Below, one piece after another: positions 3,084 through 40,578 of a DNA stretch of 40,818 bases (its first letter is position 1; every line of letters begins with the position of its first letter). The DNA comes from Craspedostauros australis (Eukaryota): contig JALAGF010005611.1 of assembly GCA_030167865.1 (NCBI GenBank), forward strand, positions 1-40,818, given 5' to 3'. The notes below the pieces were generated by a model. The model saw only the letters and a list, made by a program, of their open reading frames with translations. It was not told where the DNA came from and did no database searches. Both the position numbers and the translations under genes were made by a program.

Positions 3084-5271
3084 CTACTTGATTGACGTCT
3101 TCGAACATACCCCATCCCGTAATTCGATGATGTCGTGACGACCTTGCGTCTTCGTAATTTCCATCGCTGCTTTGCCGCTCCTATTCCTGATCCCCATGGC
3201 AGTCGCCACCTTTTTCTGTTTTGTCGACGCCTCCAGCACTCTCAGCACCTTCAACTGGCTCTCTGTACATGCCTTGTGCCATGCAGTGTCACCATCGCGA
3301 TTTTGAATTGTCGTGTCCATTCCCTTCGACTTGAGAAAGCCCCTGGTCATTGTGGCATCGCCTTTGCTGGCCGCGTGATGCAACGGAGCGTCGCCAATAT
3401 TGTTCTGGATATTGACGATTGGTAGTCCTGATACAATCAAGCGATGCATCGCGTCCCCTTGCTGGATGGCCCAAACTTGATCCAAGTGCTGGTGGGACAC
3501 GATCTCCTTTCGGATGAGGTTGTAGCGATTGGTGAAGATCGCTTTTCACACGTCGGCAAGGACGGGCAATGGCGGGTAGAAAGGTGTAACGGAGCGCTGC
3601 CGTCTTCGTTTTGGATGGTCAGATCAAGCCTAGTTTCGTGCGATCGAAGGAAACGCTCGACCTTGCACCTTGACCAGTTTTCGCACAGAAGATGAGACGG
3701 CGTGTTGCCTTGGTTGTCCTGTGCATTGATGTCTACCTCTGGTCGATGCGATTCGAGCAATGCTTGCGCGGCGGCGGTATTTTGGTTCGTGCACGCGAGG
3801 TGAAGCGCCGTTGCACCTTTGTTGTTTCGAATGCTTGCATCAAGCACAGCGAACTTGGACCGAAGAAGTCATGGCACCGCGCAGTCGTCCTGAGACTTGG
3901 CGGCAGAGTGGAGCGCCGTGTTTCCATCGGCGTTTCGAATTGTTGCATCAAGGATGCCCACAGTCAACTTCATCAACACAGCATTACGGAAGCCACGATG
4001 AGGGTTGGCCATCGCCAGATGGAGCGGTGTGTATCCATCCTGTCTTTGGAGATTCAGAGCAGTATTGCTTTCTTCGCCAGATGAATCCAGAAGGTACTCG
4101 AGCAATTGTGTATCAGTCAAGGTGCTTGCGATGTGGAATGGTGAGTTGCCTTCTCCATCTTTCGTGCAGAGGTCCATGTTGACTCGTTCCAACTCCATGA
4201 GATATAATACTTGAGAAGCGTTGCGCGATTACATCGGCAGGCCATTTGAAATGTTGAATCGCCGTCGTTGTTGTCGATGCTGAGCGCATGGTTGATCTGC
4301 CTCATCGCTAACGGGCCTCCAATCCATGCCACGGAACCCATTCGGCATGCGCGGTGAATGGTGATGTCGATGCTTGGGTCGAGTTCGGCTAAATACGATG
4401 CAACGGAGGCATCCCAGCTGGAACATGCAAGATGGAATGGTGTTTCGCCCGACCTGTTCCTTCTGTTCAGATCGACTCGCACCTTGCCTGACTCCATCAT
4501 GAGCTTGACTATGTCTCAGGGAGTCTTCTATCAGGCGGCATAGAAGGGCGTGTTGCTTTCAATTGTCGCAAATGCCGAAATCAATCTTCAGCTGGTCGTC
4601 GGTTTGAAACAAGAGGCCCGTCGCTTTGCCGTTTTTTTTTACCCGCGAGCGCAAGTAAACAATGTGGAACGGCGTTCGCCCCTGATTGTCTTGGATGTTG
4701 AGATCGATCCTGGAGCGGAGCTTGGAATGATTAGAGCTGATCAAACATTCCATGAATTCCAAGTTGCAGCGCTGGAATGCATGATGGAGCGGGGTCATTC
4801 CTTCACCATCCTTCGCATCTGCATCAATGTTGGCTTGACTTGAATTGATCGTGTACTCGATCAGCTTGATGAAACCCTCGGAGCTTTTGCATGCAATATG
4901 GAATGCTGTGCTGCCCGCTCCATTCTCGTGTTTCGCATTGACATCGATGTCGGTATCGGTCGATTCCACCAAATAGTCCACGATGTCGCTGTGCGGGCGG
5001 ATGCAAGCGTGATGGAAAGAAAGTGTTCCCCTGCTCCTCTTTTGCAGCGATGTCAGGATGCGCTCGATTCGATTCGAAGAGGTACTTGAACACATGAACG
5101 TGTCCGTCGCGGCAGGCCACCATGAGCGGCGTCCACCCGCGTGAATGCTGCTCATCGACGTTCACAAGCACGTGGTCTGATTCGACCACGTGCTTGACGA
5201 TGGGGAGGTATCCCTTGGAACATGCCCTGTGGAACGTATAGTGTCGAGTATGTTGACTGCTTGCCGCGCAT
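3084..5271 (-). pseudogene. Degenerate ankyrin-repeat protein gene (multiple frameshifts and in-frame stops)
   Basis: Consecutive ANK motifs (GWTPLMVAC, GSTAFHIAC, GMTPLHHA, GETPFHLAC, GYTPLHLA, GATALHLAC, GDAPLHHAA) are spread over at least 6 ORF fragments in different frames. Stops: TGA 4559-4561, TGA 4531-4533, TAG 4528-4530, TGA 4516-4518, TGA 3869-3871. Frame changes near 5020, 4558, 4200 and 3490-3570. The 5' boundary is approximate. Confidence 0.85.
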
Positions 5272-6089
5272 CGCCTGGAGAGGTGGATTGATATGAATGT
5301 TGCGAGAGGCCGGGTTGGCGGATGGAAAGGCGAGGGAGGGATTGGATTGCGCGGTTGAACCATTTTAGCCGGACGCGCCATACGAGCAAGATGATCAAAG
5401 ATTGGTTTCATCTGTCATTCTGCAAGTCAAAGGACGCGTGTCTGCGGATAGAACAACTTGCGTGCTCAGCTCTACTCTGCTCTGCTCTCCTCTCCTCCAT
5501 GAAGAGTTCAGAATCATTGAAATACGACCCACCATGCAGTCGGAGGGCATGGAAGCCTCGACCATTTCATGTTGCTGCCGAAGGGACAAGCGCGTGGGCA
5601 GACACGAACGAAACTGTTTGGACATGGCTGCGCTTCTGTACTTCTCACGACCATGGAGTGGTCTCTATCTCCACCTCTATCCATTGATTCAGATGCAGAT
5701 CGTAGATACAGGTGCGGTTCGTGGTTCTCTTGGTTCATGTGACCTTGTCTCGTCCGTTCGTGTGGCCTCTCATCTTGTGGTCGGCGTTTCCTTCTCTTGT
5801 TTCGTTTCGAGACGATTTTGTTCTTGTTGTGTTGCGAAATGTGAAGAGTCGTGTCAGCACCACTCGACATGATTGGCCCGCTATACACGACTTACACCGT
5901 TTGAGTTCGTCCATCCATGGCACACACAACGATGGTGTCACTGAGTCGTGCGATTGATGTTTGTTCTCTAGATACAATCAATAGATTGACAGCGACACAC
6001 GACTGAAGATGGACACGCAAACGTGATTTTGCGCTTCTCAACGCGCCGCCTCAAACGTGCTTCAAGCGCAAGATTGACACTCGCTTCTC

Positions 6090-25059: not shown

Positions 25060-26460
25060 CGACCGCATCTGCAGCAGCAAAAACAACATCGAGATGCACG
25101 AGCATCTGCCCACGGCATGGCATCACATGACATGACGAGGCTTGGATTCTACAAATACTCTGTGGTTCTGCTGTCGGTCATTGACAGCAAATGAGAAACA
25201 CAGATTGGTCGGCGAAGAAGCCTATCCGACAGGAAAGAAAGGAGAGACCGGGCGTTCACTTGCGACGCTGCGCGACGTTCTCTACCTCACTCGCTCATCA
25301 TTGTAACATGAACTGCCAAAGCCGGGATCGGGGCCCGCGCTGGGACCTCAGGATCAGCAACTGCGTTTCTGTCGTTCCAATCACGGCACCTCCGGAAGCT
25401 CCATTCTACTACCCAACCATCCCTCACTGTTCTACGAGCTGTCACCATTCCCAAGGTCCACAGAGCAAGAGAACTATAGTTGTACATAGACACACTTCAT
25501 ACAAACGCACACACAAAGCATCACTGGTCACTTGTTCCCTTGTCCCTCTCTTGTTAGATTGGAGTTCACGGATTACTCTATCCTTTCCGAGTGGAGTCAC
25601 CAGTCAATCAATCAATTCTGCGCTGCGCCAGGGAATGGACTTCACCTGAATCTGCAATCACCTACGCCATAGGCTCACACAGCTACGAACAGGTATGTCT
25701 GAGATTGTTCAGGCTGGGCCGCCGGAACACGAAGCGCACCTCCCAAGTCACCTCAGCTTTCATCACTCGAACTATGCACGAGTATCGGTACGGCAGAGAA
25801 TAGAGGAGTCACCTCTATGATTTGATGCCGCCTCTTCTTCGCTTCGCGCATCAGCAATCGGTTTTGGGTTGCGCTTGCGGTTGTTGCTGGATCTGGTTTG
25901 TTGGTCATCGGCACAGATTGTGCACAATTTGCACCAAACTACAGACGCATTGCATCGCTGCCGCACCCGTCGGTGCCTGGCTCACGACGTGCAACTCAGC
26001 GTGGCTCTGCTTTCCTGATTGTGCGGTGTGGGCGGTTACCAACGAACGATTACACGCATGGTCACATGGCTGGGTGGTTTGGTCTTGGTGCGATGGTGAG
26101 ATTATTCGCGCCTCCGCCTTCCGTTTCTTCCTGTTTCGATCCAAATTGTCATGAGATTAACTCTCATCTACCTGTTGGAACATTGTAGATTGTGCAAATG
26201 GTGAAATAGCATCGCAAAACCGTCTTGGGACTGCCCATCGTCAGTCTTGACAACCTCAAGATAGACTTGCCGAACGCGTGTACCGTTTTTGCAAAGAGCT
26301 ACTTCGCTTTGTTTCCCGATTATCCGACGAAGGTCAGACGACCACTAACGAAGATCTCGAGTTTTTGTTGATGTGTCAAAAAATCCACCGACAGAGGAAA
26401 CCACCGCCAACACCACCCAAACGAGGCGAAGACTCGGGCTTTCCTTGTTGAGAGATCCCC

Positions 26461-26530
26461 CAACTCAACTCATCACCGCTCAACTCAACTCAACTCAACT
26501 CAACTCAGCTCACCACAACTCACCACAACA
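26461..26530. repeat. (CAACT)n pentanucleotide microsatellite upstream of gyrA
   Basis: CAACT x2 at 26461-26470, x5 at 26481-26505, then degenerate copies. Confidence 0.85.
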
Positions 26531-26749
26531 TTCAACACTCAGCATCGATACGAAGCAACACAACGGAAGCCCCTTGGCGGACGACAAAGAGCGCGAGAGT
26601 CTGAATCCCATAGAGGTGTACTATACGAGTCGATCTGGGCCATATATTCAGCAATCGATAAGATCAAGAAAGAAAAGAAGGAAACAGACGAGTGTCGATC
26701 TGTTCGTTGCATTGGCCCATCTCTGTCAACCATTGACATCAACATCACC

Positions 26750-27661
26750 ATGATCGTGAAGAATACGAGAAAGCGTGCTCATTCTGGGCACCGTTTCCAC
26801 GGGGTGTCCGCGATGATGCTCTTGTGCCTTTCAAGTTTTTGCGTCATGTCGACAGTGGCATTCTCACCTCGGCTGTCGTCAGGTCTGGCAGCCAGAACCA
26901 TGGAACAACGGCAACGGCAACAACAGAATCTGCAGCAAGAGCACTATCCAAGCAGCGTCGCCATCAATACTGGACGCCATCCACGGACTCTGCTGCGCAA
27001 ATCGCTAGACGACGACGACGGCGACGACGATGTAGATCTGCTTACCGCCGAGGACGGCGTCGATGAGGAAGACTTCAGTTTCGCTCCCGTCGAGAGCTTC
27101 GAATCTGAAGCCGATGTGGCGTCAGCTGCTAATGAACTCGCGGCTGAAACAGGCGGCAGCAAAGTGGAATTGCAGAAGGAGATCGAAACGTCCTTCCTGC
27201 AGTACGCGCTGTCCATCATCCTTGGCCGCGCACTCCCGGATGCCCGCGATGGTCTCAAGCCCGTGCACCGGCGGATATTGTACGCCATGCACCAGCTGTC
27301 GTTATCTCCGAGCGGTCCGCACAGAAAATGTGCGCGTGTGGTCGGCGAAGTGCTGGGCAAGTACCATCCACACGGAGACATGGCCGTCTACGATGCCCTG
27401 GTGCGCATGGCGCAGGACTTCACCACCAACTACCGTCTCATCGATGGGCATGGAAACTTCGGCTCCGTCGATGCGGATCCAGCCGCCGCCATGCGTTACA
27501 CGGAATGTCGGCTGACGCATCTGGCCACCAACGCCCTGTTGGCTGATATCAACGATGATACTGTGGATTTCAATGCCAACTTCGATGGCAACGAGGTCGA
27601 GCCCAACGTGCTTCCAACGAAGCTGCCCCTCCTGCTCCTCAACGGCAGCTCAGGCATAGCT

Positions 27662-27693
<32 letters not shown>

Positions 27694-30103
27694 TCTCAGA
27701 GAGGTCATGAATGCTTGCATCGCACTTGTGGAAGGCAGGATGGACCCCACCAAGGAGATCAGCGACGATCAGCTCTTCCGCATCGTGCCAAGTCCCGACT
27801 TCCCAACGGGCGCCTACATCATGGGGACTGACGGTGCCAAGCAGCTCTACTCCACCGGAAACGGTGGCATTGTCATGCGAGCCGTCACCAACATCGAACA
27901 GCTCGCGAAGAAAGGCAAGGGGCAAGCAAGAACAGCGATCATCGTGACCGAGCTCCCGTACCAGGTCAACAAGGCAGCGTTGCTGGAGAAGATTGCAGGC
28001 TTGGTCAACGACAAGAAGTTGGAAGGCATTTCGGATCTCCGAGATGAGTCCGATCGCGAAGGCATCCGCGTGGTGCTGGAGCTGAAGCGCGATGCCATTC
28101 CCGACGTCGTCTTGAACAACCTCTACAAGAAGACATCCCTGCAGACATCCTTCTCTGGAAACTTCCTTGCCTTGATGGATACCAAGGACGATGGATCGTC
28201 CCTCACGCCGCAGAGATTCACGCTGCGTGAGGCGTTGGACTGCTTTCTCAACTTCCGTTTCAAGACCATTCGGAGGAAGACGAGCTACCAGCTGAACAAG
28301 GTGGAGAATCGTGCTCACATCGTGGCCGGTCTGCTGAAGGCACTGGCGAGGGTGGACGAAGTCATCGAGGTTGTTCGCAGCTCGCCTGATCAGAAGACGG
28401 CCAAGCTCCGAGTGATAGAGGAGGGTGGCTTCCTCGAGCTTTCCGAGGAGCAGGCTGACGCTGTGCTGCGATTGCAATTGGGCCAGCTGACACGTCTCAA
28501 CGGCGACAAGCTCAAAGCGGAAGCGGAGGACTTGCAGCGACAGGCCAAGGACCTCAAGCGCTTGCTGGATGTCGACAATGCAGTTTACGACGTCATCATC
28601 AACGAGTCCAAGGAACTGGATGCCAAGTACGGCGAGGAACGCAAGTCGCGCATCCAGACGGACGGCGGTGGCGAAGTCGACGAGCTCGACATGATCAAGA
28701 ACTCTCGTTCTGGTAAGTTTGAGTTGCGTTCGTCATGGATGGAGCTTTATCATTGTGCTGCGCTGTGTTGCGCTGCTGGTGCTGCTGAATTATTTTTGCG
28801 TCGTGCTTTGTATCATGCCTTGTATCGTACGTTGAACTATGGTATTATGCATGCATGAGCAAAGCGATCCAGGATTGGATCGCAACGGGTGCTCATACAT
28901 GTAAATGCTCGTGACCTTCTGCAATCTGACTTGTGCACTCTTTCATCTAACACTCCGACCTTCACTCCATTTCCATCTATCTGGCTCGTCCTCTCTTGTG
29001 CTTTCGTTGATGCGATGCCGCCTGTTCGTACCCTTGCTGCGCGAACGTGCCGATGCTGCGTTTTCGAATATTCTCGCCATTTTGCATTATCACCCCACGC
29101 TTTTTGTGCAGTGATCGTGATGACGCGAGGTGGATACATCAAACGCATGCCATTGAAGACCTTCGAGCGCCAGAACCGTGGAACCAGAGGCAAGCGAGGG
29201 ACATCGTCGACTGGCAACTCATCCGATGACGAAGTCGCCCACTGCTTCACCTGCAACGATCATGACACCCTCCTCATGGTGTCGCAGAGCGGCATCGCCT
29301 ATGGTCTGCGAGCCTACCGCGTACCCGTCGCAGGACGGGTTGCGAAGGGACAGCCCATTCCATCGGTCCTCCCAATACGAATGGATGACACGATCACTTC
29401 GATCATGCCCGTCGACGACTTTGCGGACGATGAGTACGTCATCCTGACCACTGAGAAGGGATGGATCAAGAAGACGCCGCTGAAGGCTTTCGAGAAGATC
29501 AACAACCGAGGTCTCACCATCGCCAGGCTGGAACCAGGCGACCGCCTGAAGTACAGCAAGCATTGTAGAGACGGAGATGACATCCTCATGGGAACAACCT
29601 GCGGCAAGGCAACTCGATTCTCGTCAGCCGATGTGCGTCCGACCAAGAGAAGCAGCCGAGGCGTGCGAGCGATGAGGCTGAGGGAGGGTGATACCATCGC
29701 CGACATGAACGTGGTAACGGGCAGGAACGACGAACCCCCCAACGGCGCTACGGCCCCAGACGGAGAGGAGTACGTGATGTGCATCACGGCGGCCGGATAC
29801 GGCAAACGCACACGGACCAGCGATTTCAACACGAAGCAGCGCGGTGGCATGGGCGTCTTGGCGCTGAAGTTCAACGCGAAGCGGGAAGGCGAGGATCGCG
29901 TTCAGAGTTTCTGCGTCGTGAGCGGCGACGATGAAGTTTTGCTCATCACCGCGCAAGGCGTCATGGTGAGGCAGAAGGTCTCGAGCATCCCCATCCAAGG
30001 CCGTGCCGCCACCGGCGTTCTGGTGCAGAAGGTCGATGAGGGAGACAGCATCTCCAGCATCAGCCTCGTCCCCAAGAGCGCCTACGAAGACAGCGACGAC
30101 TAA
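26750..30103 (+). CDS. gyrA: DNA gyrase subunit A, organelle (plastid-type) targeted; exons 26750-28712 and 29112-30103
   Basis: Motifs [23 protein letters not shown], catalytic [22 protein letters not shown], GyrA-box-like QNRGTRG and C-terminal beta-pinwheel repeats. Phase-1 intron GTAAGT 28713 … GCAG 29111 gives [13 protein letters not shown]. Signal peptide plus STVA|FSPR presequence. Confidence 0.96.
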
Positions 30104-30641
30104 GAGCAGGGAAAGTCATCAGTAACTGTAGTACGCATTGCATACTTGTTAAAGCCGAAACAAAACTGGCGGAGTAGTCATCATGGAGGAGGGTGTGATG
30201 GAGAGAAGACGAGAGAGAGTGGGTTGAAGCAATGCGCTTTCCTCTTGTATCAATACGAGGTATCTTTCTCTCTAGCTTCGATCTCAGTTTATTTCACGAT
30301 GTGGCGCAACCGACTCGCTCGACCAACGTTTTTCATGACGTGTTGAGTTGGCTCTGTGTTGTTCCTCTTTTGGCCAGTTTCGTGGATGTCGGCCACTGTT
30401 CGTGGCGTCATCGTCAACCGTGGAACCGAGACAGATGATGTTGAACACATGCTCGGTGCATGGATGAACAACGCAGCAACGCCGGAACACAATACAGAGT
30501 CAGCGACACCAGGTCCATCGACATCGAACAAGACGTCGTCGGAGAGAGCTGCTACGAGAACGGAGAGCCTCGCCGCACATCCAATCCATCCATCCATAGT
30601 GATCAACTGACAAGGAAGCAAACAGCACGACCGCGACGACG

Positions 30642-32117
30642 ATGATGAAGAGCATCGGCCTCGCAATTGCGTTCGCTGGCACCGTCGGCGCATGGACGGT
30701 CCCGCAGCAGTTGCGATCGGCCTCCGTCCAGCTGTTCAACGTGCCGCCACCGGCCGAGACAGACATCGAGGCCTTCAAGGAGTACGCCTCGAAGCAGTCT
30801 CCCCCGTCCAGCTTCTTCGAGCTGCAGAAGGACTGCATCCGCGCGGCAAAACTCGCCGTGCGCGATGGATACCAGCTGCTGGAGGTGGAGTTCCCACCGC
30901 TGCCGGCCAAGGTGCTGGAGATGGACGACGTGTCGGCGTACGATGTGGCGCAAGCCAATCTCAAGCTGGCCGTGGAGTTCGCACGCGGTTTCACCGCCGA
31001 GAACAAGAACGTCGCCATCATGCTGCCCGATGAGTCGGAGGCCATCATTTCGGTGGAGCGCCTCACGGGTGCGGAGGATGCTAAGGCAGTAACGCAGGTG
31101 GAAGCTGGTGTCACCGTGACTTCGTTGCGACGCAGTGACGAGGACGATAATCGTGTTGTGAAGGTACGAGTATGCCGCGCAGCAGAGAATGGATCAACTG
31201 GTGTGCTTGTTGATTCATTGATGGGTGGATGGGCAGGTGCCACGGGATATCTGTGGCTTCGCAACACAACATTGCTATGCAATCAGTACTCAACGAGAGT
31301 GAGATTGACGAAAAGGTTCACTCTAATTCGAATTGGAGGCTCTCTGTAGGATGATCATCGCGATTGAAAATGTTGCCCACGCCAACACTCACGCCGTGAA
31401 TGTTTATGGCTTGATTGAGCGCGAAACTCAATGTGCATTGAACTCACTCATCACATCTATCACCTTCACCAACCATCAACCATATCGAATTTAATCCGAC
31501 AACGACGACGGCGACGACAACAACAACAGCCGGAACAAATCTTGCTGAACCTGTTCGGCAACGGCAACCGTGGCGACATCAAGCCAGTCAACGGCACCGA
31601 CGTGTACATCTGCCTCGTCGCCAGCGCGCAGGAGTTGCCCGACATTGAGGAGCTGTACCGCGTCGTCAAGGACGACGGCGTGCCCATCATCCTGTACAAC
31701 CTCAAGCTCGACGTCCTTCGCGGCGATCTGGGCGCCCCGGCCTTCCCGCCAAAGGAATTCCAGGACCGCTTCTTGAGCCGCGTCAAGCCAGTCTACTACC
31801 TGCGAACACGTCAGTACTCGCGCAGCACGCCCAATCCGCCATTCCTCGTCAATTATCAGGGATGCTTGTTCCGCGCGTATCCGGGACAGTTCCAGACGCT
31901 GTTGGATACCGGCACGGGCAGCTACCGCCGATTGTTGGGCAGCGATGTGCGACCTGCTCTGGGCGAGTTCAAGGAGGAGCTGACGCAGGCGTTGCGAGAT
32001 GAAGGCGTCCTGCCGGCCACGGAAGGCAAGACGTTCGACTTTTTGCGCACCGGATACAAGACCACCACGTGGTGGGAAGAAGAGCGGGCCGAGGCCAGCA
32101 TGGATTGGAAGACCTAA
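30642..32117 (+). CDS. LPA3: DUF1995-family plastid protein (LOW PSII ACCUMULATION 3-like); exons 30642-31163 and 31530-32117
   Basis: Motifs A..DGYQLLEVEFPPLP, D…AN..LA, PIILYNLKLDVLRGDLG…FPPK….RFL….PVYYLR.R.YS and NYQGCLFRAYPG.FQ. Phase-0 intron GTACGA 31164 … ACAG 31529. Presequence AGTVGA|WTVP. Confidence 0.85.
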
Positions 32118-32751
32118 ACGTGACTGAGCCTGAGAGTATGGCGAACTGGCGTTCTCATGGGCATGCATCGCTTTGCTCTATGTATCTGTCCTACTCTATA
32201 AACGCAGGTATTTCGTTTGAGCACCGAACCTGAGAGCACGCAGAACATTCTACCACAGTATCTGCAGCAAGTCTTCGCGCTCCTCCGGCTGCAGATGTTG
32301 GCGAATTGCTCAATTGTCCCTCCGTGTCTTCAATAGATGCAAGAGGCCAGGGCTCACCGTAGCTGAGAGATGTAAGACTTGTGCAAGTCTCTTGCATTGG
32401 TGGTTAGAGATCATTGCGGTGTCGCGGAGGAGTTCTGATGGTGTTGTTGTGTTTGTTGCGTTGTTCACCAAAGAACACGCAAATGCGTCAACAACGACAA
32501 ATACGCTGCTGCGACGAAACAAGACCAAATCAAACGAGGCGACCACGTTGAAGACCCATGTCATTCAATCCAATGGCGTCGCTTCTGATGCCACATCTAT
32601 GATTTCTGACTCGTAGATTCACCACGATCTAGTATACAAATAAATCACATCCATTACTAGAGGAGAGAGAAGTACAACATCATGCTTTGTTGGTGCTTCC
32701 GACACACCATTCTAATGCCAGCCGGTCCTTCTGTTGCTCGACTCGTCGTCG

Positions 32752-35700
32752 TCACTGTTCCTGACCCGGTGGCGCTTGCCGAAGGTGCCGCTGCTGGTAA
32801 GCCCAAGTGAGGTAAGACTCCACCTCCCAATGTCCCTTCGAAGTTGCCAAATCCAATGGTGTGCTTCCGTCATTGTTCGTGATGGTGATGTCAGCCTCGA
32901 AAACCTCAACGAAATCCCGCACGACATTCAACTGTCCCCAACAACACAAGATGTGCAGTGCTGTGTTGCCAGTTGTATTGACCGCGTTGATGTCAACTTT
33001 CTTCCGTGCGGCCAACGACTGAGCGAGATTCCAGTACCTTTCCAAGCATGCCACATGGATCATGGTGGCCCCATCAATGTCTTGAGCATTGGCGTCCGCA
33101 TTTTCACGATCCACCAAGTACTCTGCCACTTCTTGTTGCCCTGTTGCACATGCGAGATGCATTGGCGTCTGCTGCTGGTTGTTTCGGATGTTGATATTGG
33201 CATTCGTTGCCTCGACAAAGAATCGGACACCCCTGAGGTCTCCGTAGAAAGACACAACATGGATTGGTGCGTTGCCTTGCATGTCATTGGCGTTCACATC
33301 TGCACCCAGTTGTCCAACCAAGATACGCACTGCCTCCAATCTCCCGTGAATGCATGCAAGGTGGAGTGGCGTCTGTTGTTGGCCGTTTTGGATGTTGACA
33401 TCCCCTGTTCTCGGGTTCAATATCAACAAGTGCGAAATCGCATCAGCGTCAGCACCTGGGCTGTCACAATACAGGTGCAAGGGCGTGTTACCTTGCGCAT
33501 CTTGGGCATTCCGATCGGCGCCCATTTCAGCAACCAAACAAGGGATTGCACCGTATCTGCGATACATGCATGCAACGTGAAGTGGCGTCTGCTCCAGGTT
33601 GTTTCGAATGTTGATATCGGCATTCCTTGCTCTCGTCAAGAATCTGATGGCCCTGAGGTCTCCGCAGGAAGACACATAGTGTAATGGGACGTTGCCCAGT
33701 GTATCTCCTGCATTCACATCAGCACCCATTTCATCAACCAAGCAGCGCACTGCCTCGAGTCTGCCACATACACATGCAAGGTGGAGTGGCGTCTGTCCGT
33801 TGTTGTTTCGAATGTTGAAATTTGCCCAAGCAATATGCAGGGACAGCAAGGTTTCACGATCAGGATCACGATCAGGATCACGACCACTCATGTTCCTGCA
33901 GAGGCAATGCAAGGGTGTGTTGCCCTGTGTGTCTTGGACATTCACATCAGCACCCATTTCATCAACCAAGCAGCGCACTGCCTCGAAGCTCCCCTGAATG
34001 CATGCAAGGTGGAGTGGTGTCTGTTGTTGGCCGTTTCGGATGTTGACATCTACTTCAGCATTGTGCAAGGACAGCAAGGTTTCGCGATCAGGATGATGAT
34101 CACTCCCATTCTTGCAGAGGTAATGCAAGGGTGCGTTGCCCTGTGCGTCTTGGACATTCACACCAGCACCCATTTCATCAACCAACCAGCGCACTGCCTC
34201 CATTCTCCCATATTTGCATGCAACGTAGAGTGGTGTTTGTCCTTTGTTGTTTTGGATGTTGACATCTGCTCCAGCATTTCGCAGGGACAGCAAGGTTTCG
34301 CGATCAGGATCACGACCCATCATGTTCTTGCAGAGCTCATGCAAGGGTGTGTTGCCCTGTGTGTCTTGGACATTCACATCAGCACCCATTTCATCAACCA
34401 ACCAGCGCACTGCCTCGAAGCTCCCCCAAATGCATGTAAGGTGGAGTGGTGTTTGTCCTTTGTTGTTTTGGATGTTGACATCTGCTTCAGCATTGTGCAG
34501 GGACAGCAAGGTTTCGCGATCAGGATCACGACCCATCACGTTCTTGCAGAGCTCATGCAAGGGTGTGTTGCCCTGTGCGTCTTGGACATTCACATCAGCA
34601 CCCATTTCATCAACCAACCAGCGCACTGCCTCGAAGCTCCCATATGTGCATGCAAGGTGGAGTGGTGTCTGTTGTTGACCGTTTCGGATGTTGAAATCTG
34701 CTCCAGCATTTCGCAGGAACGGCAAGGTTTCACGAGGATGACGGCGATCAGGATGATGATCACTCGCATTCTTGCAGAACTGATGCAAGGGTGTGTTGCC
34801 CTGTGTGTCTTGGACATTCACATCAGCACCCATTTCATCAACCAAGATACGCACTACCTCAAAGCTCCCCTGACTGCATGCAAAGTGGAGTGGTGTCTGT
34901 TGTTGGCCGTTTCGGATGTTGACATCTGCTCCAGCATTTCGCAGGAACAGCAAGGTTTCGCTAGGATGACGGCGATCAGGATGATGATCACTCGCATTCT
35001 TGCAGAACTGTTGCAAGGGTGTGTTGCCCTGTGTGTCTTGGGCATTCACATCAGCACCCATTTCATCAACCAAGATACGCACTACCTCGAAGCTCCCCTG
35101 ACTGCATGCAAGGTGGAGTGGTGTCTGTTGTTGGCCGTTTCGGATGTTGAAATCTGCTCCAGCATTTCGCAGGAACCGCAAGGTTTCGCTAGGATGACGG
35201 CGATCACTCGCATTCTTGCAGAGCTCATGCAAGGGTGTGTTGCCCTGTGCGTCTTGGACATTCACACCAGCACCCATTTCATCAACCAAGATACGCACTG
35301 TCTCCAATCTCCCATATTTGCATGCAAGGTGGAGTGGCGTCTGTTGTTGGCCGTTTCGGATGTTGAAATCTGCTCCAGCATTTCGCAGGAACCGCAAGGT
35401 TTCGCTAGGATGACGGCGATGAGGATGATGATCACTCGCATTCTTGCAGAACTGATGCAAGGGTGTGTTGCCTTGTGCGTCTTGGACATTCACATCAGCA
35501 CCCATTTCATCAACCAACCAGCGCGCTGCCTCGAAGCTCCCCTGAATGCATGCAAGGTAGAGTGGTGTCTGTTGTTGGTCGTTTCGGATGTTGAAATCTG
35601 CCCCAGCATCTCGCAGGAACAGCAAGGTTTCGCGAGGATAACGGCAATCACTCGCATTCTTGCAGAACTGATGCAAGGGTGTGTTGCCCTGTGCGTCTTG

Positions 35701-37893
35701 GACATTCACACCAGCACCCATTTCATCAACCAACCAGCGCACTGCCTCCAACTTCCAATGCATGCATGCAAGGTGAAGTGGTGTCTGTTGTTGGCCGTTT
35801 CGGATGTTGAAATCTGCTCCAGCATCTCGCAGGAACAGCAAGGTTTCGCGATGAGGACGGCGATGAGGATGATGATCACTCGCATTCTCGCAGAACTCAT
35901 GCAAGGGTGTGTTGCCCTGTGCGTCTTGGACATTCACACCAGCACCCATTTCATCAACCAAGAGACGCACTGCCTCGAAGCTCCCCTGAATGCATGCAAG
36001 GTAGAGTGGTGTCTGTTGTTGGTCGTTTCGGATGTTGACATTTGCTCCAGCATCGCGCAGGAACAGCAAGGTTTCGCGAGGATGACGGCGATGAGGATGA
36101 TGATCACTCGCATTCTTGCAGAACTGATGCAAGGGTGTGTTGCCCTGTGCGTCTTGGACATTCACATCAGCACCCATTTCATCAACCAAGCAGCGCACTG
36201 CCTCCAACTTCCAATGCATGCATGCAAGGTGAAGTGGTGTCTGTTGTTGGTCGTTTCGGATGTTGAAATCTGCTCCAGCATTGTGCAGGGACAGCAAGGT
36301 TTCGCGATGATGATGATGATCACTCGCATTCTCGCAGAGCTGTTGCAAGGGTGTGTTGCCTTGTGCGTCTTGGACATTCACATCAGCACCCATTTCATCA
36401 ACCAAGATACGCACTACCTCAAATCTCCAACATGTGCATGCAATGTGGAGTGGTGTCTGTTGTTTTCTGTTTCGGATGTTGACATCTGCCCCAGCATTGC
36501 ACAGGGACAGCAAGGTTTCGCGATCAGGAGGACGACAATTCACGTTCCCACAGAGCTCATGCAAGGGTGTGTTGCCCTGTGTGTCTTGGACTTTCACATC
36601 AGCACCCATTTCATCAACCAAGATACGCACTGCCTCCAATCTCCCATATTTGCATGGAACGTGGAGTGGTGTCTGTCCTTTGTTGTTTTGGATGTTGACA
36701 TCTGCTCCAGCATTTCGCAGGGACAGCAAGGTTTCGCGATCAGGATGACGCCCACTCGCATTCTTGCAGAGCTCATGCAAGGGTGTGTTGCCCTGTGCGT
36801 CTTGGACATTCACACCAGCACCCATTTCATCAACCAACCAGCGCACTGCCTCCATTCTCCCCTGAATGCATGCAATGTGGAGTGGTGTCTGTTGTTGGTC
36901 GTTTCGGATGTTGAAATCTGCTTCAGCATTATGCAGGAACAGCAAGGTTTCGCGATGAGGACGGCGATGAGGATGATGATCACTCGCATTCTCGCAGAAC
37001 TCATGCAAGGGTGTGTTGTCCTGTGCGTCTTGGACTTTCACATCAGCACCCATTTCATCAACCAAGCAGCGCACTGCCTCGAAGCTCCCATATTTGCATG
37101 GAACGTGGAGTGGTGTCTGTCCTTTGTTGTTTTGGATGTTGACATCTGCTCCAGCATTTCGCAGGGACAGCAAGGTTTCGCGATCAGGATGACGACCCAT
37201 CACGTTCGTGCAGAGCTCATGCAAGGGTGTGTTGCCCTGTGTGTCTTGGACATTCACATCAGCACCCATTTCATCAACCAAGCAGCGCACTGCCTCGAAG
37301 CTCCCACGAATGCATGCAATGTGGAGTGGTATCTGTTGTTGGTCGTTTCGGATGTTGACATCTGCTTCAGCATTTCGCAGGGACAGCAAGGTTTCGCGAT
37401 CAGGATCACGAGCCATCACGTTCTTGCAGAGCTGATGCAAGGGTGTGTTGCCCTGTGTGTCTTGGACATTCACACCAGCACCCATTTCATCAACCAAGCA
37501 GCGCACTGCCTCGAAGCTCCCACGAATGCATGCAAGGTGGAGTGGTGTCTGTTGTTGGTCGTTTCGGATGTTGACATCTGCTCCAGCATTTCGCAGGGAC
37601 AGCAAGGTTTCACGATCAGGATCACGAGCCATCACGTTCTTGCAGAGCTCATGCAAGGGTGTGTTGCCCTGTGTGTCTTGGACATTCACACCAGCACCCA
37701 TTTCATCAACCAAGATACGCACTGCCTCGAAGCTCCCACGAATGCATGCAAGGTGGAGTGGTGTCTGTTGTTGGCCGTTTCGGATGTTGACATCTGCCCT
37801 ACCATTGCGCAGGGACAGAAAGAATCGAATTCTTGCCACATCTCCCCATCTGCATGCAAAATGGAGGTCAGTGTCACCACCTACATTTGCCAT
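32752..37893 (-). CDS. Giant ankyrin-repeat protein (about 47 ANK repeats, about 1713 aa from ATG 37893; may extend to ATG 38250 with a signal/anchor peptide)
   Basis: Uninterrupted ORF of alternating QQTPLHLAC..G.FEAVR.LVDEMGA and GNTPLH.LC.N…RETLL.L.NAGA repeats, with a diverged C-terminal cap GSTPLDLA…GH..V..YL. Confidence 0.92.
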   Translation of the reverse strand: MANVGGDTDLHFACRWGDVARIRFFLSLRNGRADVNIRNGQQQTPLHLACIRGSFEAVRILVDEMGAGVNVQDTQGNTPLHELCKNVMARDPDRETLLSLRNAGADVNIRNDQQQTPLHLACIRGSFEAVRCLVDEMGAGVNVQDTQGNTPLHQLCKNVMARDPDRETLLSLRNAEADVNIRNDQQQIPLHIACIRGSFEAVRCLVDEMGADVNVQDTQGNTPLHELCTNVMGRHPDRETLLSLRNAGADVNIQNNKGQTPLHVPCKYGSFEAVRCLVDEMGADVKVQDAQDNTPLHEFCENASDHHPHRRPHRETLLFLHNAEADFNIRNDQQQTPLHIACIQGRMEAVRWLVDEMGAGVNVQDAQGNTPLHELCKNASGRHPDRETLLSLRNAGADVNIQNNKGQTPLHVPCKYGRLEAVRILVDEMGADVKVQDTQGNTPLHELCGNVNCRPPDRETLLSLCNAGADVNIRNRKQQTPLHIACTCWRFEVVRILVDEMGADVNVQDAQGNTPLQQLCENASDHHHHRETLLSLHNAGADFNIRNDQQQTPLHLACMHWKLEAVRCLVDEMGADVNVQDAQGNTPLHQFCKNASDHHPHRRHPRETLLFLRDAGANVNIRNDQQQTPLYLACIQGSFEAVRLLVDEMGAGVNVQDAQGNTPLHEFCENASDHHPHRRPHRETLLFLRDAGADFNIRNGQQQTPLHLACMHWKLEAVRWLVDEMGAGVNVQDAQGNTPLHQFCKNASDCRYPRETLLFLRDAGADFNIRNDQQQTPLYLACIQGSFEAARWLVDEMGADVNVQDAQGNTPLHQFCKNASDHHPHRRHPSETLRFLRNAGADFNIRNGQQQTPLHLACKYGRLETVRILVDEMGAGVNVQDAQGNTPLHELCKNASDRRHPSETLRFLRNAGADFNIRNGQQQTPLHLACSQGSFEVVRILVDEMGADVNAQDTQGNTPLQQFCKNASDHHPDRRHPSETLLFLRNAGADVNIRNGQQQTPLHFACSQGSFEVVRILVDEMGADVNVQDTQGNTPLHQFCKNASDHHPDRRHPRETLPFLRNAGADFNIRNGQQQTPLHLACTYGSFEAVRWLVDEMGADVNVQDAQGNTPLHELCKNVMGRDPDRETLLSLHNAEADVNIQNNKGQTPLHLTCIWGSFEAVRWLVDEMGADVNVQDTQGNTPLHELCKNMMGRDPDRETLLSLRNAGADVNIQNNKGQTPLYVACKYGRMEAVRWLVDEMGAGVNVQDAQGNAPLHYLCKNGSDHHPDRETLLSLHNAEVDVNIRNGQQQTPLHLACIQGSFEAVRCLVDEMGADVNVQDTQGNTPLHCLCRNMSGRDPDRDPDRETLLSLHIAWANFNIRNNNGQTPLHLACVCGRLEAVRCLVDEMGADVNAGDTLGNVPLHYVSSCGDLRAIRFLTRARNADINIRNNLEQTPLHVACMYRRYGAIPCLVAEMGADRNAQDAQGNTPLHLYCDSPGADADAISHLLILNPRTGDVNIQNGQQQTPLHLACIHGRLEAVRILVGQLGADVNANDMQGNAPIHVVSFYGDLRGVRFFVEATNANINIRNNQQQTPMHLACATGQQEVAEYLVDRENADANAQDIDGATMIHVACLERYWNLAQSLAARKKVDINAVNTTGNTALHILCCWGQLNVVRDFVEVFEADITITNNDGSTPLDLATSKGHWEVESYLTWAYQQRHLRQAPPGQEQ
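33802..37773 (-). repeat. Tandem array of 18 near-identical coding units (11 x 216 bp + 7 x 228 bp)
   Basis: Counted from the translation: 11 x 72 aa + 7 x 76 aa = 1324 aa = 3972 bp, which matches the coordinates. Near-invariant DNA blocks such as CAGCACCCATTTCATCAACCAA recur in each unit. Confidence 0.95.
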
Positions 37894-38735
37894 GTTCACA
37901 GTAAAGTTGATGCCTCTGACTTCCGATGCTGCAAGAAAGGACAAGCATTGAGATACGCTGGTGAGCACGATGACGAACCTGTGCTCTAGTATGTTGCACA
38001 GGTACGAGTGTAAGTAGAGGTGCGTTTCATCAGAGCATCGAGGTGTTCCTGCCAACGGTGGGGTGCAAGCATGTCGTACCGGCAGTGTTGACACAAAATG
38101 AGGTTGGGCGAAGTTGTTGGCTTTTTTGTGGGATTTGACATCGCTCCAAGGATCCCACGCAACCTGGGAAGGAAGAGTGACACCAACAAGGATCGCAATG
38201 CAAGAAGAGGCCAACACCGCTGCTCCTACCATCAACAGCACCATCTTCATCGAATTGTCATGAAACAGTGCTCACCTGTTGTTGTTTTGTTGTGGTTGTG
38301 CTTCACAGAGTTGCGTGTTCGATGCAATCTATTCTGCTGGATTCCATTTGTATTGGTGTGCTCTCTGGTGTAGCTCGTACTACCTCCAGGTCGCAGTTGA
38401 TGCACTCACGATAACACTAGTTGTGGAGTTTTGACCCCTTGTTGCCACTGGTTTGCTCGCTTTTGGGAGAATCGGCGATTGGATATTTAGAGCTATTTCG
38501 TGTTTGCTCTCGCTGATCCGTCTTCTACGTCACAGGGAACGGATTCCACGTCATGAAAAACGAGTCACAACAGAGGAAGAGACATGGTGTGACTCTTCCT
38601 CCACAAGACAAGATGATGACTGCGCGCGGCGACAACAGAATGTGCCAGGCCAGGACAGCCAACAGCAGCCTGCATTGACCGATCTCACGATGGAAACCAA
38701 CAAAATCCAATGGCCTCAGAATTCGACGAAGGGCA

Positions 38736-40578
38736 TTGACGAACGAAACAGCAACAGCACAAGCTGTAGCCGCTGATGTTGACATTGGCGATCCCAAATG
38801 CAAAGACACATCCTTCCTCACCATCAATCCAAATGACATCAATACTGTCAACCGCAGCGAGCTGGATCCCAATGCAGCGAATCGCGGTGAACTCCCAGAG
38901 GACATGGATGCCAACAGCATCAGAGAATCCACCTTTGTCAACATGTTCCGCGGTTCCGCCAACTATATCGCCAACCATCGCAACACCCTGGTCGTCTTCC
39001 ACATTCCGGGCGATCTCATGGAGGGTCAGGACACCAACTTCCTGCGGGACCTCATGAACGACATCGCATTGTCGTGGTTGCTGGGCATCAAGATCGTCAT
39101 CGTCGCGGGATGCCGCTACCAGCTGCAGCAACGTATCGCAGGGCAGGATCGACATCATGGCGTGACGGTCGCGGACCGTGATGCGCTGCGTGTGGTCAAG
39201 GAGGTGGCAGGATATATCCGCTATGAGATCGAACGTCAACTGGCACGATCTTTGCGCATGCAGGGTGCCAACGACTCGCGCACGCCAAATCAGACCACGC
39301 AGTTCGATTTGGACTATCCATCGAATGGCAATGGCAACTACCAGCAGCAGCAGTATTTGCAGTCCTCGCCAAATGGATCCTATCAACAGCAGTCACAGCA
39401 ACAGCAGAACTTTGGAAGAACGAGTCAGAATGGATACAGGAATGAAGCTCTGGGCAGAATGGGCAACCGCATGGACACTCAACACACAATGAATCCATTC
39501 AGCAACCCCAATGATCACAGCTACAGCAGTGATGGAAATGTGGTTTCTGGGAACTTCTACACAGCCCAGCCAATGGGCATCCTGGATGGCGTCGATTACA
39601 AATCCACAGGATTCGTGCGTCGTGTGGAGGTGGAGAAGATCCGCCAGGTTCACAACTCCCGTGATATCGTCCTGCTCACAACATTGGGCGTCAGCCCCAG
39701 CGGCGAAGTCTTCAATGTCAATTCGGAAAGTTTGGCAGTGACGGTCACGGGTGCCATGGATGCCAGCAAGATCATCTTCTTCACAGAAGGCGACATGCAG
39801 CTGCGGCACAACATCCATGGCAAGCAGATCCATCATCTGCGTGTCAAGGACGCCCACAACCTGCTTCGACACCGCACCGTCGACATCCGCAAGCGTGGTC
39901 TCGTCACCTTGGGCGAGAGCTGTCCTCAGGAAAGCGCCAAGCGCAACAAACTCATCAAGATTGGAAGGGTCCATGCATGCACTCGAGCAGGGCGTCCGAC
40001 GTGCGCACATTATCTCGCTGCGGCACGGGGCATTGCTGCACGAGCTGTACACGCGAGATGGCAGTGGCACCATGCTCTCCCGCGACCTCTACGACGGCAT
40101 CCGCCAGGCCAAGGTTGAGGATGTCAGCGCCATCCACGAGCTCATCACACCGCTCATCCAGATGGGAAGGCTGGTGGATCGGCCAAAGGCCGTGCTAGAA
40201 AAGTCGGTACCCTCTTACCACGTCTACACGCGCGATGACCTCGTCGTGGCATGCGGGCAGCTCAAAATGTTCGAGAACGGGTTTGCTGAGATCGCTTGCC
40301 TTGTCGTGGATCGCAACTACCGCTCGCGAGGACATGGCGATGCCATGCTTGGCTACCTGGAACGTCTGTGTCTGCAGAAGGGGGCCTCCTACGTCTTCGT
40401 CCTCAGCACGCAGACGATGGAATGGTTCATCGAACGCGGATTTGACGAGGTCGATGTCAGCAGGTTGCCGCCCAGCCGTCAGGCTGTGTACAATGCCAAA
40501 TGCGACAGCAAGATTTGCATGAAGAAGATCACCGGCGTTCGGGATTTGGATGCCTCCGAAATGTGGTGGAATAGATAG
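38736..40578 (+). CDS. argA: N-acetylglutamate synthase (amino-acid N-acetyltransferase, AAK + GNAT domains), with an apparent frameshift near 39966-39969; pseudogene or sequence error
   Basis: First frame: FVNMFRGSANYIANHRN, DIAL…LGIKIV.V.G, VVSGNF, DGVDY..TG.VR, SPSGEVFN. A second frame continues: GVRRAH, GALL.ELYTRDGSGT, EIACLVV…YR..GHGD, FVLSTQT..WF.ERGF. The frames switch at LIKIG|SMHAL. Start unclear: TGA in frame at 38676; first downstream ATG at 38904. Confidence 0.88.

Follow-up and report, generated by a model that had tools for sequence, protein, structure and literature searches.

The closest described relatives in kind to the gene treated here are the NOD-like receptors (NLRs) of the fungus Podospora anserina, such as Pa_3_8560, in whose ankyrin (ANK) repeats the selected sites lie, as far as the excerpted text of Dyrka et al. 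(2014, PMC4986451) goes, on the concave face with one exception. In the same excerpt, repeats are assigned to the high-internal-conservation (HIC) type when internal repeats are more than 85% identical along a stretch of 100 amino acids or more. The present work concerns a giant ANK gene on the minus strand of contig JALAGF010005611.1 (assembly GCA_030167865.1) of the diatom Craspedostauros australis, analysed in a stretch of 40,818 nucleotides hereafter called the window. An earlier inspection of the letters (the original prediction) had proposed this gene as a candidate diversifying receptor, built from a tandem array of ANK double repeats with a hypervariable residue pair in each unit. Our preferred reading, to which we assign a probability of about 0.55, is that the gene encodes an ankyrin solenoid that is specific to its lineage, has been amplified recently, evolves in concert, probably has a membrane tether and has had its groove diversified unit by unit.

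Bacteria, viruses and parasites all have close interactions with diatoms, which also recognise their mates, and to our knowledge hardly anything has been learnt of the proteins behind the specificity of such interactions. A giant ankyrin diversified unit by unit, with no recognisable close relative even in diatoms, would be a concrete candidate for such recognition specificity. Fast-evolving repeat proteins have already been put forward as recognition candidates in stramenopiles, namely the leucine-rich repeat (LRR) and tetratricopeptide repeat (TPR) candidate receptors of brown algae; these, in the excerpt of Zambounis et al. (2012, PMC3341825), carry LRR or TPR together with ROCO or NB-ARC domains and undergo exon shuffling, whereas the diatom gene is a single intronless ANK reading frame. 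A literature search on diatom ankyrin repeats found no published diatom counterpart of such an array. What would be new here, judging from the sequence, is the presence of HIC-type ANK repeats with hypervariable putative contact residues in a stramenopile alga, organised as a double-repeat unit, without a NOD module and with a candidate N-terminal anchor; if this holds true, internally conserved repeats with hypervariable contact residues extend beyond fungi.

Anatomy of the repeat array

The gene is a single, uninterrupted and intronless open reading frame (ORF) of 1832 amino acids from ATG to stop, comprising about 47 ankyrin repeats (44 matches to a TPLH-like motif, plus three recognised by eye as TDLH, TMIH and TALH). 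Its membership of the ankyrin family follows from Pfam profiles scoring far above the curated cut-offs (Ank_2, PF12796, E 2.4e-264, 855.4 bits versus 27.3; Ank, PF00023, 826.4 bits versus 21.1) and from TPLH-type helix-turn-helix repeats of ~33 amino acids. The same Pfam scan of the 1832-residue ORF returned no family other than ANK, that is, no NACHT/NB-ARC, TIR, HET, kinase or other signalling domain.

Thirty-six of the ~47 repeats are arranged, just as had been predicted, as 18 tandem double-repeat units of 72 or 76 amino acids; 11 of them have 72 and seven have 76. Tandem Repeats Finder recovers this array as a 216-nt period with 18.0 copies (33869-37822, 86% matches), together with a higher-order period of 444 nt with 9.3 copies. 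All 18 units are distinct and every difference in unit length is a multiple of three. The description of the units as almost identical in DNA was nonetheless too strong, since pairwise DNA identity ranges from 79.6 to 96.5% with a mean of 87.6%, and protein identity averages 75.0% (59.7-94.4), reaching at least 85% in 9 of the 153 unit pairs. In this regard, the HIC threshold is reached locally, when u1-u2 are compared with u2-u3 (91.7% over 144 amino acids) and u12-u13 with u13-u14 (87.8% over 148 amino acids), the other 14 shifted comparisons giving 68.8-83.8%.

The most conspicuous difference between units is the dipeptide that follows the motif TPLHxxC, which from u1 to u18 reads IR, IR, IR, KY, IQ, KY, TC, MH, IQ, MH, IQ, KY, SQ, SQ, TY, IW, KY, IQ. 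Both this series, continued by VC, MY and IH in the diverged tail, and its codons (including ATT-CGT, AAA-TAT, ATG-CAT, AGT-CAG and ACA-TGT) are exactly as first described, and eight dipeptide types recur among the 18 units. The two residues occupy columns 20/21 of the 76-column alignment of the units, where they show the highest entropies of all columns (2.06 and 2.29 bits) and rank first among the 75 adjacent column pairs by nonsynonymous divergence (proportion of nonsynonymous differences, pN, of 0.463 versus a global synonymous proportion, pS, of 0.088). The claim of a hypervariable pair stands in this sense, but variability is not limited to the pair: columns 9, 51, 54, 56-58 and 64-66 are also strongly variable, columns 17 and 22-24 vary too, and the highest single-column pN belongs to column 29, a helix 2 position occupied by I, C, W or L. 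Invariant codon columns amount to 24 out of 76.

At the other end of the protein, a hydrophobic segment close to the initial methionine reaches a Kyte-Doolittle 19-residue mean of 2.66 at amino acids 4-22, the maximum of the whole protein, followed by a weaker segment at amino acids 91-109 (1.49). From its composition this first segment probably tethers the protein to a membrane, as a signal anchor would. A stop codon in frame lies seven codons 5' of the ATG, and amino acids 1-119, open in frame before the first repeat, are probably translated according to a rough chance estimate; if they were not, M120 would be a possible alternative start. A short upstream ATG overlapping the start codon out of frame forms a possible tiny upstream ORF (uORF). 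Absence of additional domains through a missing exon is unlikely, because the DNA upstream is occupied by an amino-acid-kinase/GNAT gene on the plus strand, and the upstream minus-strand ORFs match no Pfam family.

Position of the variable sites on the ankyrin fold

A phmmer alignment to the chain 6mol_A of a designed ankyrin repeat protein (DARPin; E 2.1e-53) places columns 20/21 on the two residues after TPLHLAA, where the internal repeats of the DARPin differ from each other, and columns 7, 9, 10 and 12 on hairpin positions at which the repeats of the DARPin are likewise unlike one another. We take columns 20/21 to be DARPin positions 13/14, and columns 7, 9, 10 and 12 to be positions 33, 2, 3 and 5, a numbering that is reportedly that of Binz et al. 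2003. The expectation that the pair would sit at helix-1-end positions randomised in DARPins agrees with this alignment, by which it would correspond to 13/14 of 6mol_A. In the A repeat of the unit, positions 13/14, 2, 3 and 33 vary, and position 5 (column 12) is an invariant Gln. In the B repeat, variation at the DARPin-type positions (2, 3, 5, 13, 14 and 33) is confined to 13 and 2. The residues adjoining the pair, 15-17, change together with it (MH goes with WKL, TC with WRF), so that the variable patch really comprises positions 13-17. The idea that all the variation maps to a single surface was only partly sustained: positions 13/14, 33, 2 and 3 of the A repeat would belong to a DARPin-type face, but column 29, which is position 22 of helix 2, would not.

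The likeness to DARPins extends to the natural variable columns 7, 9, 10, 20 and 21, all of which align with positions differing between DARPin internal repeats. In contrast to DARPins, this is a natural protein with ~47 repeats of two alternating types, with extra variable sites at 15-17, at 22 and in the B loop, and with position 5 invariant. Among solved structures, the best matches by sequence belonged to giant ankyrin adaptors and springs, namely 7ptx_A (E 5.8e-55), 4rlv_A (E 2.9e-51) and 5vkq_A (E 5.3e-45). As in giant ankyrins such as the 24-repeat domain of ankyrin-R/B, NOMPC with its 29 repeats or the ANK domains of latrotoxins, the protein would form a long solenoid with an inner groove; in those cases, however, the repeats are old, diverged and accompanied by other domains, whereas in the diatom protein the repeats are young (pS 0.088), and the protein is made of ANK repeats only and provided with an N-terminal hydrophobic segment.

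Nonsynonymous change at the variable sites

Since the units recombine, changes were counted without a tree, by means of a minimum spanning tree over the distinct codons of each column in which synonymous paths were preferred. This yielded minimum-mutation totals of 18 synonymous steps for the 49.9 sites of that class, and of 87 nonsynonymous steps for the other 178.1. At the A-repeat pair (13/14) 10 nonsynonymous steps were observed against 1.82 expected from the synonymous rate, which gives a ratio of nonsynonymous to synonymous change (omega) of 5.5 (Poisson P 2.2e-5), and hence a rate above the synonymous one, as the per-codon comparison suggested in the original prediction had anticipated. 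For the six DARPin-type columns of the A repeat taken together, 16 steps were found where 5.29 were expected (omega 3.0, P 1.3e-4), and for the loop between helix 1 and helix 2 of the B repeat 22 against 10.25 (omega 2.15, P about 1e-3). The remaining 52 columns, with 44 observed and 43.21 expected steps, show no excess (omega 1.02, P 0.47). The six DARPin-type columns of the B repeat gave five steps against 5.5 expected (omega 0.91, P 0.64). Between units, pS is 0.088 and pN 0.134.

Recombination and the history of the units

The units are heavily recombined mosaics, in keeping with the proposal that they are reshuffled. All four gametes occur in 465 of 861 pairs of informative biallelic sites, the Hudson-Kaplan minimum (Rm) amounts to 19 events within 228 nt, and for many units the nearest neighbour of the A half is not that of the B half. 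The pair is weakly coupled to the divergence of its flanks (Mantel r 0.27, P 0.004): in seven unit pairs the flanks of the A half differ by less than 4%, and four of these seven have differences in the residue pair itself, the mean over the seven being 1.57 of 6 nt. The closest duplicates, on the other hand, carry the same dipeptide (IR in u1-u3, MH in u8/u10, SQ in u13/u14 and KY in u4/u6), so the recurring dipeptide types reflect duplication history and not a code. As for possible silent donor cassettes, none of the 24 blastn high-scoring segment pairs obtained with units 8-9 fell outside the ORF within the 40-kb window, which therefore holds no cassette system.

A frame on the strand opposite to the array, codon-aligned with it, stays open for 1402 codons, yet no Pfam family matches it; the simplest explanation is that it follows from a repeat unit devoid of TTA, CTA and TCA codons. 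A simulation of stop-codon retention, in which the 335 differences from the unit consensus were treated as independent random hits, left 0 of 5000 frames open and was set aside as uninformative, because the outcome was of the same kind for this antisense frame, which is actually open.

Interpretation

According to the reading that we prefer, the central 36 repeats would have been amplified recently as 18 double-repeat units, kept similar ever since by unequal crossing-over and short-tract gene conversion; as both processes homogenise units, synonymous divergence would be low and the units mosaic. Amino-acid differences would accumulate, or be retained, mainly at the target-binding positions of the A repeat, from 13/14 into 15-17 and at the hairpin tip (33, 2 and 3), and would also build up nearby, in the loop joining helix 1 and helix 2 in the B repeat. 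The result would be one long groove displaying a different small patch in each unit, and hence a specificity diversified unit by unit. From their alignment with DARPin positions, the varied residues presumably contact a ligand, and we infer that selection for diversity, and not just the retention of old differences, produced them. Recognition of non-self or of a partner is one possible function among several.

The parallel with fungal NLRs suggested at the outset is apt for their ANK repeats of high internal conservation but does not reach the whole protein, which is not an NLR. As in the fungal HIC proteins, to the extent that they are described in the excerpt of Dyrka et al. (2014), we find tandem ANK repeats that evolve in concert and are shuffled, whose sites with nonsynonymous excess would lie mostly on the concave face, with one off it. 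A nonsynonymous excess at the putative binding face is seen here as it is in fungal HIC repeats, with an omega of 5.5 at the pair and 3.0 at the A face, both values being taken from recombining paralogous repeats within one gene. Unlike the fungal HIC NLRs, the diatom protein has neither NACHT/NB-ARC nor an N-terminal effector domain, its unit is a double repeat of 34 plus 38 or 42 amino acids, and its repeats are less conserved among themselves.

Several points weigh against the preferred reading. The omegas are crude, coming as they do from tree-free counts on recombining paralogous repeats of one gene, and the global pN/pS, at 1.52, does not significantly exceed 1, its column-bootstrap interval being 0.88-2.79. 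Old, functionally fixed differences that were protected while conversion erased the synonymous ones around them can likewise raise omega above 1 at the pair. The face columns of the B repeat show no excess, and the excess in the B loop is doubtful, because it falls in a slippage-prone, (CNT)n-like run of CAT, CGT, CCT and GAT codons where the alignment is uncertain; a 12-nt duplication in unit 18 is direct evidence of slippage in this His/Arg/Pro/Asp loop. Column 29, the most divergent of all, would be off the canonical face and away from the groove by a helical-wheel argument. The mapping to a surface itself depends on sequence alignment because both AlphaFold models were unusable, the one built on 15 overlapping segments of this protein, each of four units and aligned with one another, having a mean pLDDT (predicted local distance difference test) of 32.6 and the single-sequence model of units 7-10 one of 43.3, with just a helix-turn-helix rhythm visible. 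Furthermore, the variation compared is that among the units of one array in one assembly, and the order and number of the units are those of the assembly alone, the contigs of the public run X1 being too short to span the array.

The main rival, which we hold to be rather unlikely, is a scaffold of fixed specificity under concerted evolution, in which old face residues would be kept by purifying selection for one or more constant partners, as in ankyrin-R/B, while gene conversion homogenised the rest. The weak coupling between pair and flanks is what would be expected for protected codons amid homogenised flanks, and the extreme mosaicism and the retention of the dipeptide by the closest duplicates fit equally into such a scheme. 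Large ANK adaptors are moreover common, and ANK proteins of diatoms themselves serve at the silica deposition vesicle, according to the excerpt of Heintze et al. (2022, PMC9894196), as adaptors in the cytosol. These dAnk1-3 proteins resemble the one studied here in that they are thought to act at a membrane surface through protein contacts; as described in that excerpt, however, they lack transmembrane segments and are widespread in diatoms, whereas this protein has a hydrophobic N-terminus and no close relative among the matches listed, and it is by description that the two are set apart. Against this rival, one would expect a conserved adaptor to possess orthologues that can be recognised in other diatoms. 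Relatives were searched for with the whole protein, with the C-terminal 358 amino acids against longer proteins, and with units 8-9 against 1.84 billion representatives, diatom proteomes being present in these databases as shown by the homologues of a neighbouring DUF1995 protein. The matches listed were generic ankyrin proteins of 23-48% identity, and no relative above 48% appeared among them, whether in the whole-protein search, the C-terminal search or the best 150 of the 203,132 matches of units 8-9 at E <= 1e-3; these 150 reach down to 286 bits, below which fragments of one or two units would score. Metagenome contigs contributed seven loci of 27-35% identity, no viral contig matched the array, and the ESM Atlas gave no usable match to amino acids 1-125. 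The omega near 1 in the columns away from the face is also more in line with an array that is young and changing fast than with one that is old and constrained. If the differences were nevertheless fixed, the gene would be a useful case from nature in which gene conversion evens out a scaffold while its specificity residues stay protected.

A narrower form of the preferred reading, a strict immune or allorecognition receptor sensing pathogens, symbionts, mates or self, seems improbable to us. Its evolutionary signature would be like that of the Podospora NLR ANK repeats in the excerpted text of Dyrka et al. (2014), and the protein is lineage-specific. Run X1 adds that in the C-terminal region (33146-33316) there are two 171-nt contigs, the first identical to the assembly (depth 9) and the second departing from it at 16 of 171 nt, or 9% (depth 15.7), which may represent a divergent allele or a paralogue of the gene within one culture. 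Against it, the Pfam scan showed no NOD, TIR, HET, kinase or any other signalling domain, for which a missing exon is an unlikely reason, and the literature search offered no diatom precedent. We give similarly little credit to a more specific version, a membrane-anchored, ANK-only diatom receptor other than an NLR in which the patches (A13-17, hairpin tip and B loop) would be reshuffled within the gene to yield new specificities against bacteria, viruses, parasites or mates; were it true, such a receptor would be an algal counterpart of fungal allorecognition by HIC repeats that dispenses with the NOD module.

That the number and order of the units are an assembly artefact, or the array a neutral and decaying one, is very improbable. 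The lack of X1 contigs across the array and the omega of about 1 over most columns would suit it, but all units are distinct (80-96% identical), their lengths differ by multiples of three and the frame of 1832 codons is intact. A 1355-nt contig of X1 shows 0 differences across 32000-33135, so that the unique 3' part of the gene is exactly confirmed, and neutral drift cannot yield an omega of 5.5 at the pair.

Finally, a modular code like that of TAL effectors, in which each dipeptide would read a single element of DNA, RNA or some other polymer, as the original prediction had also contemplated, is hardly credible: its resemblance is formal (a 34-residue A repeat whose variable pair falls at 13/14, and eight recurring dipeptide types in 18 units), while the fold is that of ankyrin, with only Ank families in Pfam and DARPin and ankyrin structures as matches, the variation goes beyond one pair to many columns (15-17, which co-vary with the pair, 2/3, 22 and the B loop), the recurrent dipeptides follow duplication history and the 444-nt higher-order period, and an N-terminal segment of membrane type is ill-suited to a nuclear DNA reader.

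Gene map and neighbouring genes

Table 1. Features of the ankyrin gene and of its surroundings in the window.
Feature	Positions	Strand	Remarks
Whole ankyrin ORF	32752..38250	-	N-terminal hydrophobic segment, ~95-aa non-ANK stretch, ~47 repeats to the C-terminus
N-terminal hydrophobic segment, aa 4-25 (VLLMVGAAVLASSCIAILVGVT)	38176..38241	-	putative signal peptide or anchor
First, capping-type ankyrin repeat, aa 120-150 (MANVGGDTDLHFACRWGD...)	37801..37893	-	from the translation
18 tandem double-repeat units, aa 151-1474	33829..37800	-	A-type ANK repeat of 34 aa plus B-type of 38 or 42 aa
Units u19-u21 (diverged double repeats), aa 1475-1682	33205..33828	-	pairs VC, MY, IH; from motif and unit listing
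Four more diverged ANK repeats, ~20-aa tail, stop codon	32752..33204	-	from the translation
12-nt tandem duplication (RDPDRDPD)	33854..33883	-	helix1-helix2 loop of the unit 18 B repeat; period 12, 2.5 copies, 100% match
Possible uORF (ATGACAATTCGATGA)	38251..38290	-	
Open antisense frame	33781..37989	+	
Amino-acid-kinase/GNAT gene	38679..40578	+	
Second ankyrin-repeat region	3084..5414	-	
DNA gyrase subunit A	26372..30103	+	DNA_topoisoIV 26372-28858; C-terminal beta-propeller repeats 28859-30103
DUF1995 gene	30603..32117	+	

The gene is flanked at its 5' side by the amino-acid-kinase/GNAT gene, which is transcribed divergently at a distance of ~430 nt. In this gene the amino-acid-kinase ORF overlaps the GNAT acetyltransferase ORF in another frame, so that it looks like a gene of the N-acetylglutamate synthase/kinase type broken by an intron or a change of frame. 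Further neighbours comprise gyrase A, the DUF1995 protein, a GlcNAc transferase and an ABC ATPase. The assignment of the window to a diatom, made beforehand, agrees with the DUF1995 ORF, whose best named homologue is that of Cylindrotheca closterium (79% identity), followed by those of other diatoms (Bacillariaceae, Pseudo-nitzschia, Fragilariopsis and Seminavis), which points to a pennate diatom as the source. This gene is distributed over two ORFs ~70 nt apart (profile positions 1-75 and 77-196), an arrangement compatible with a short intron. The gyrase A gene lies in two adjacent stop-to-stop ORFs, and the split at ~28859 may reflect one stop codon in frame, a very small intron or an error. 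At the far end of the window there is a second, unrelated ankyrin-repeat region, with 25-35% identity to the array units by tblastn, spread over at least five overlapping reading frames as a result of short introns or frameshifts.

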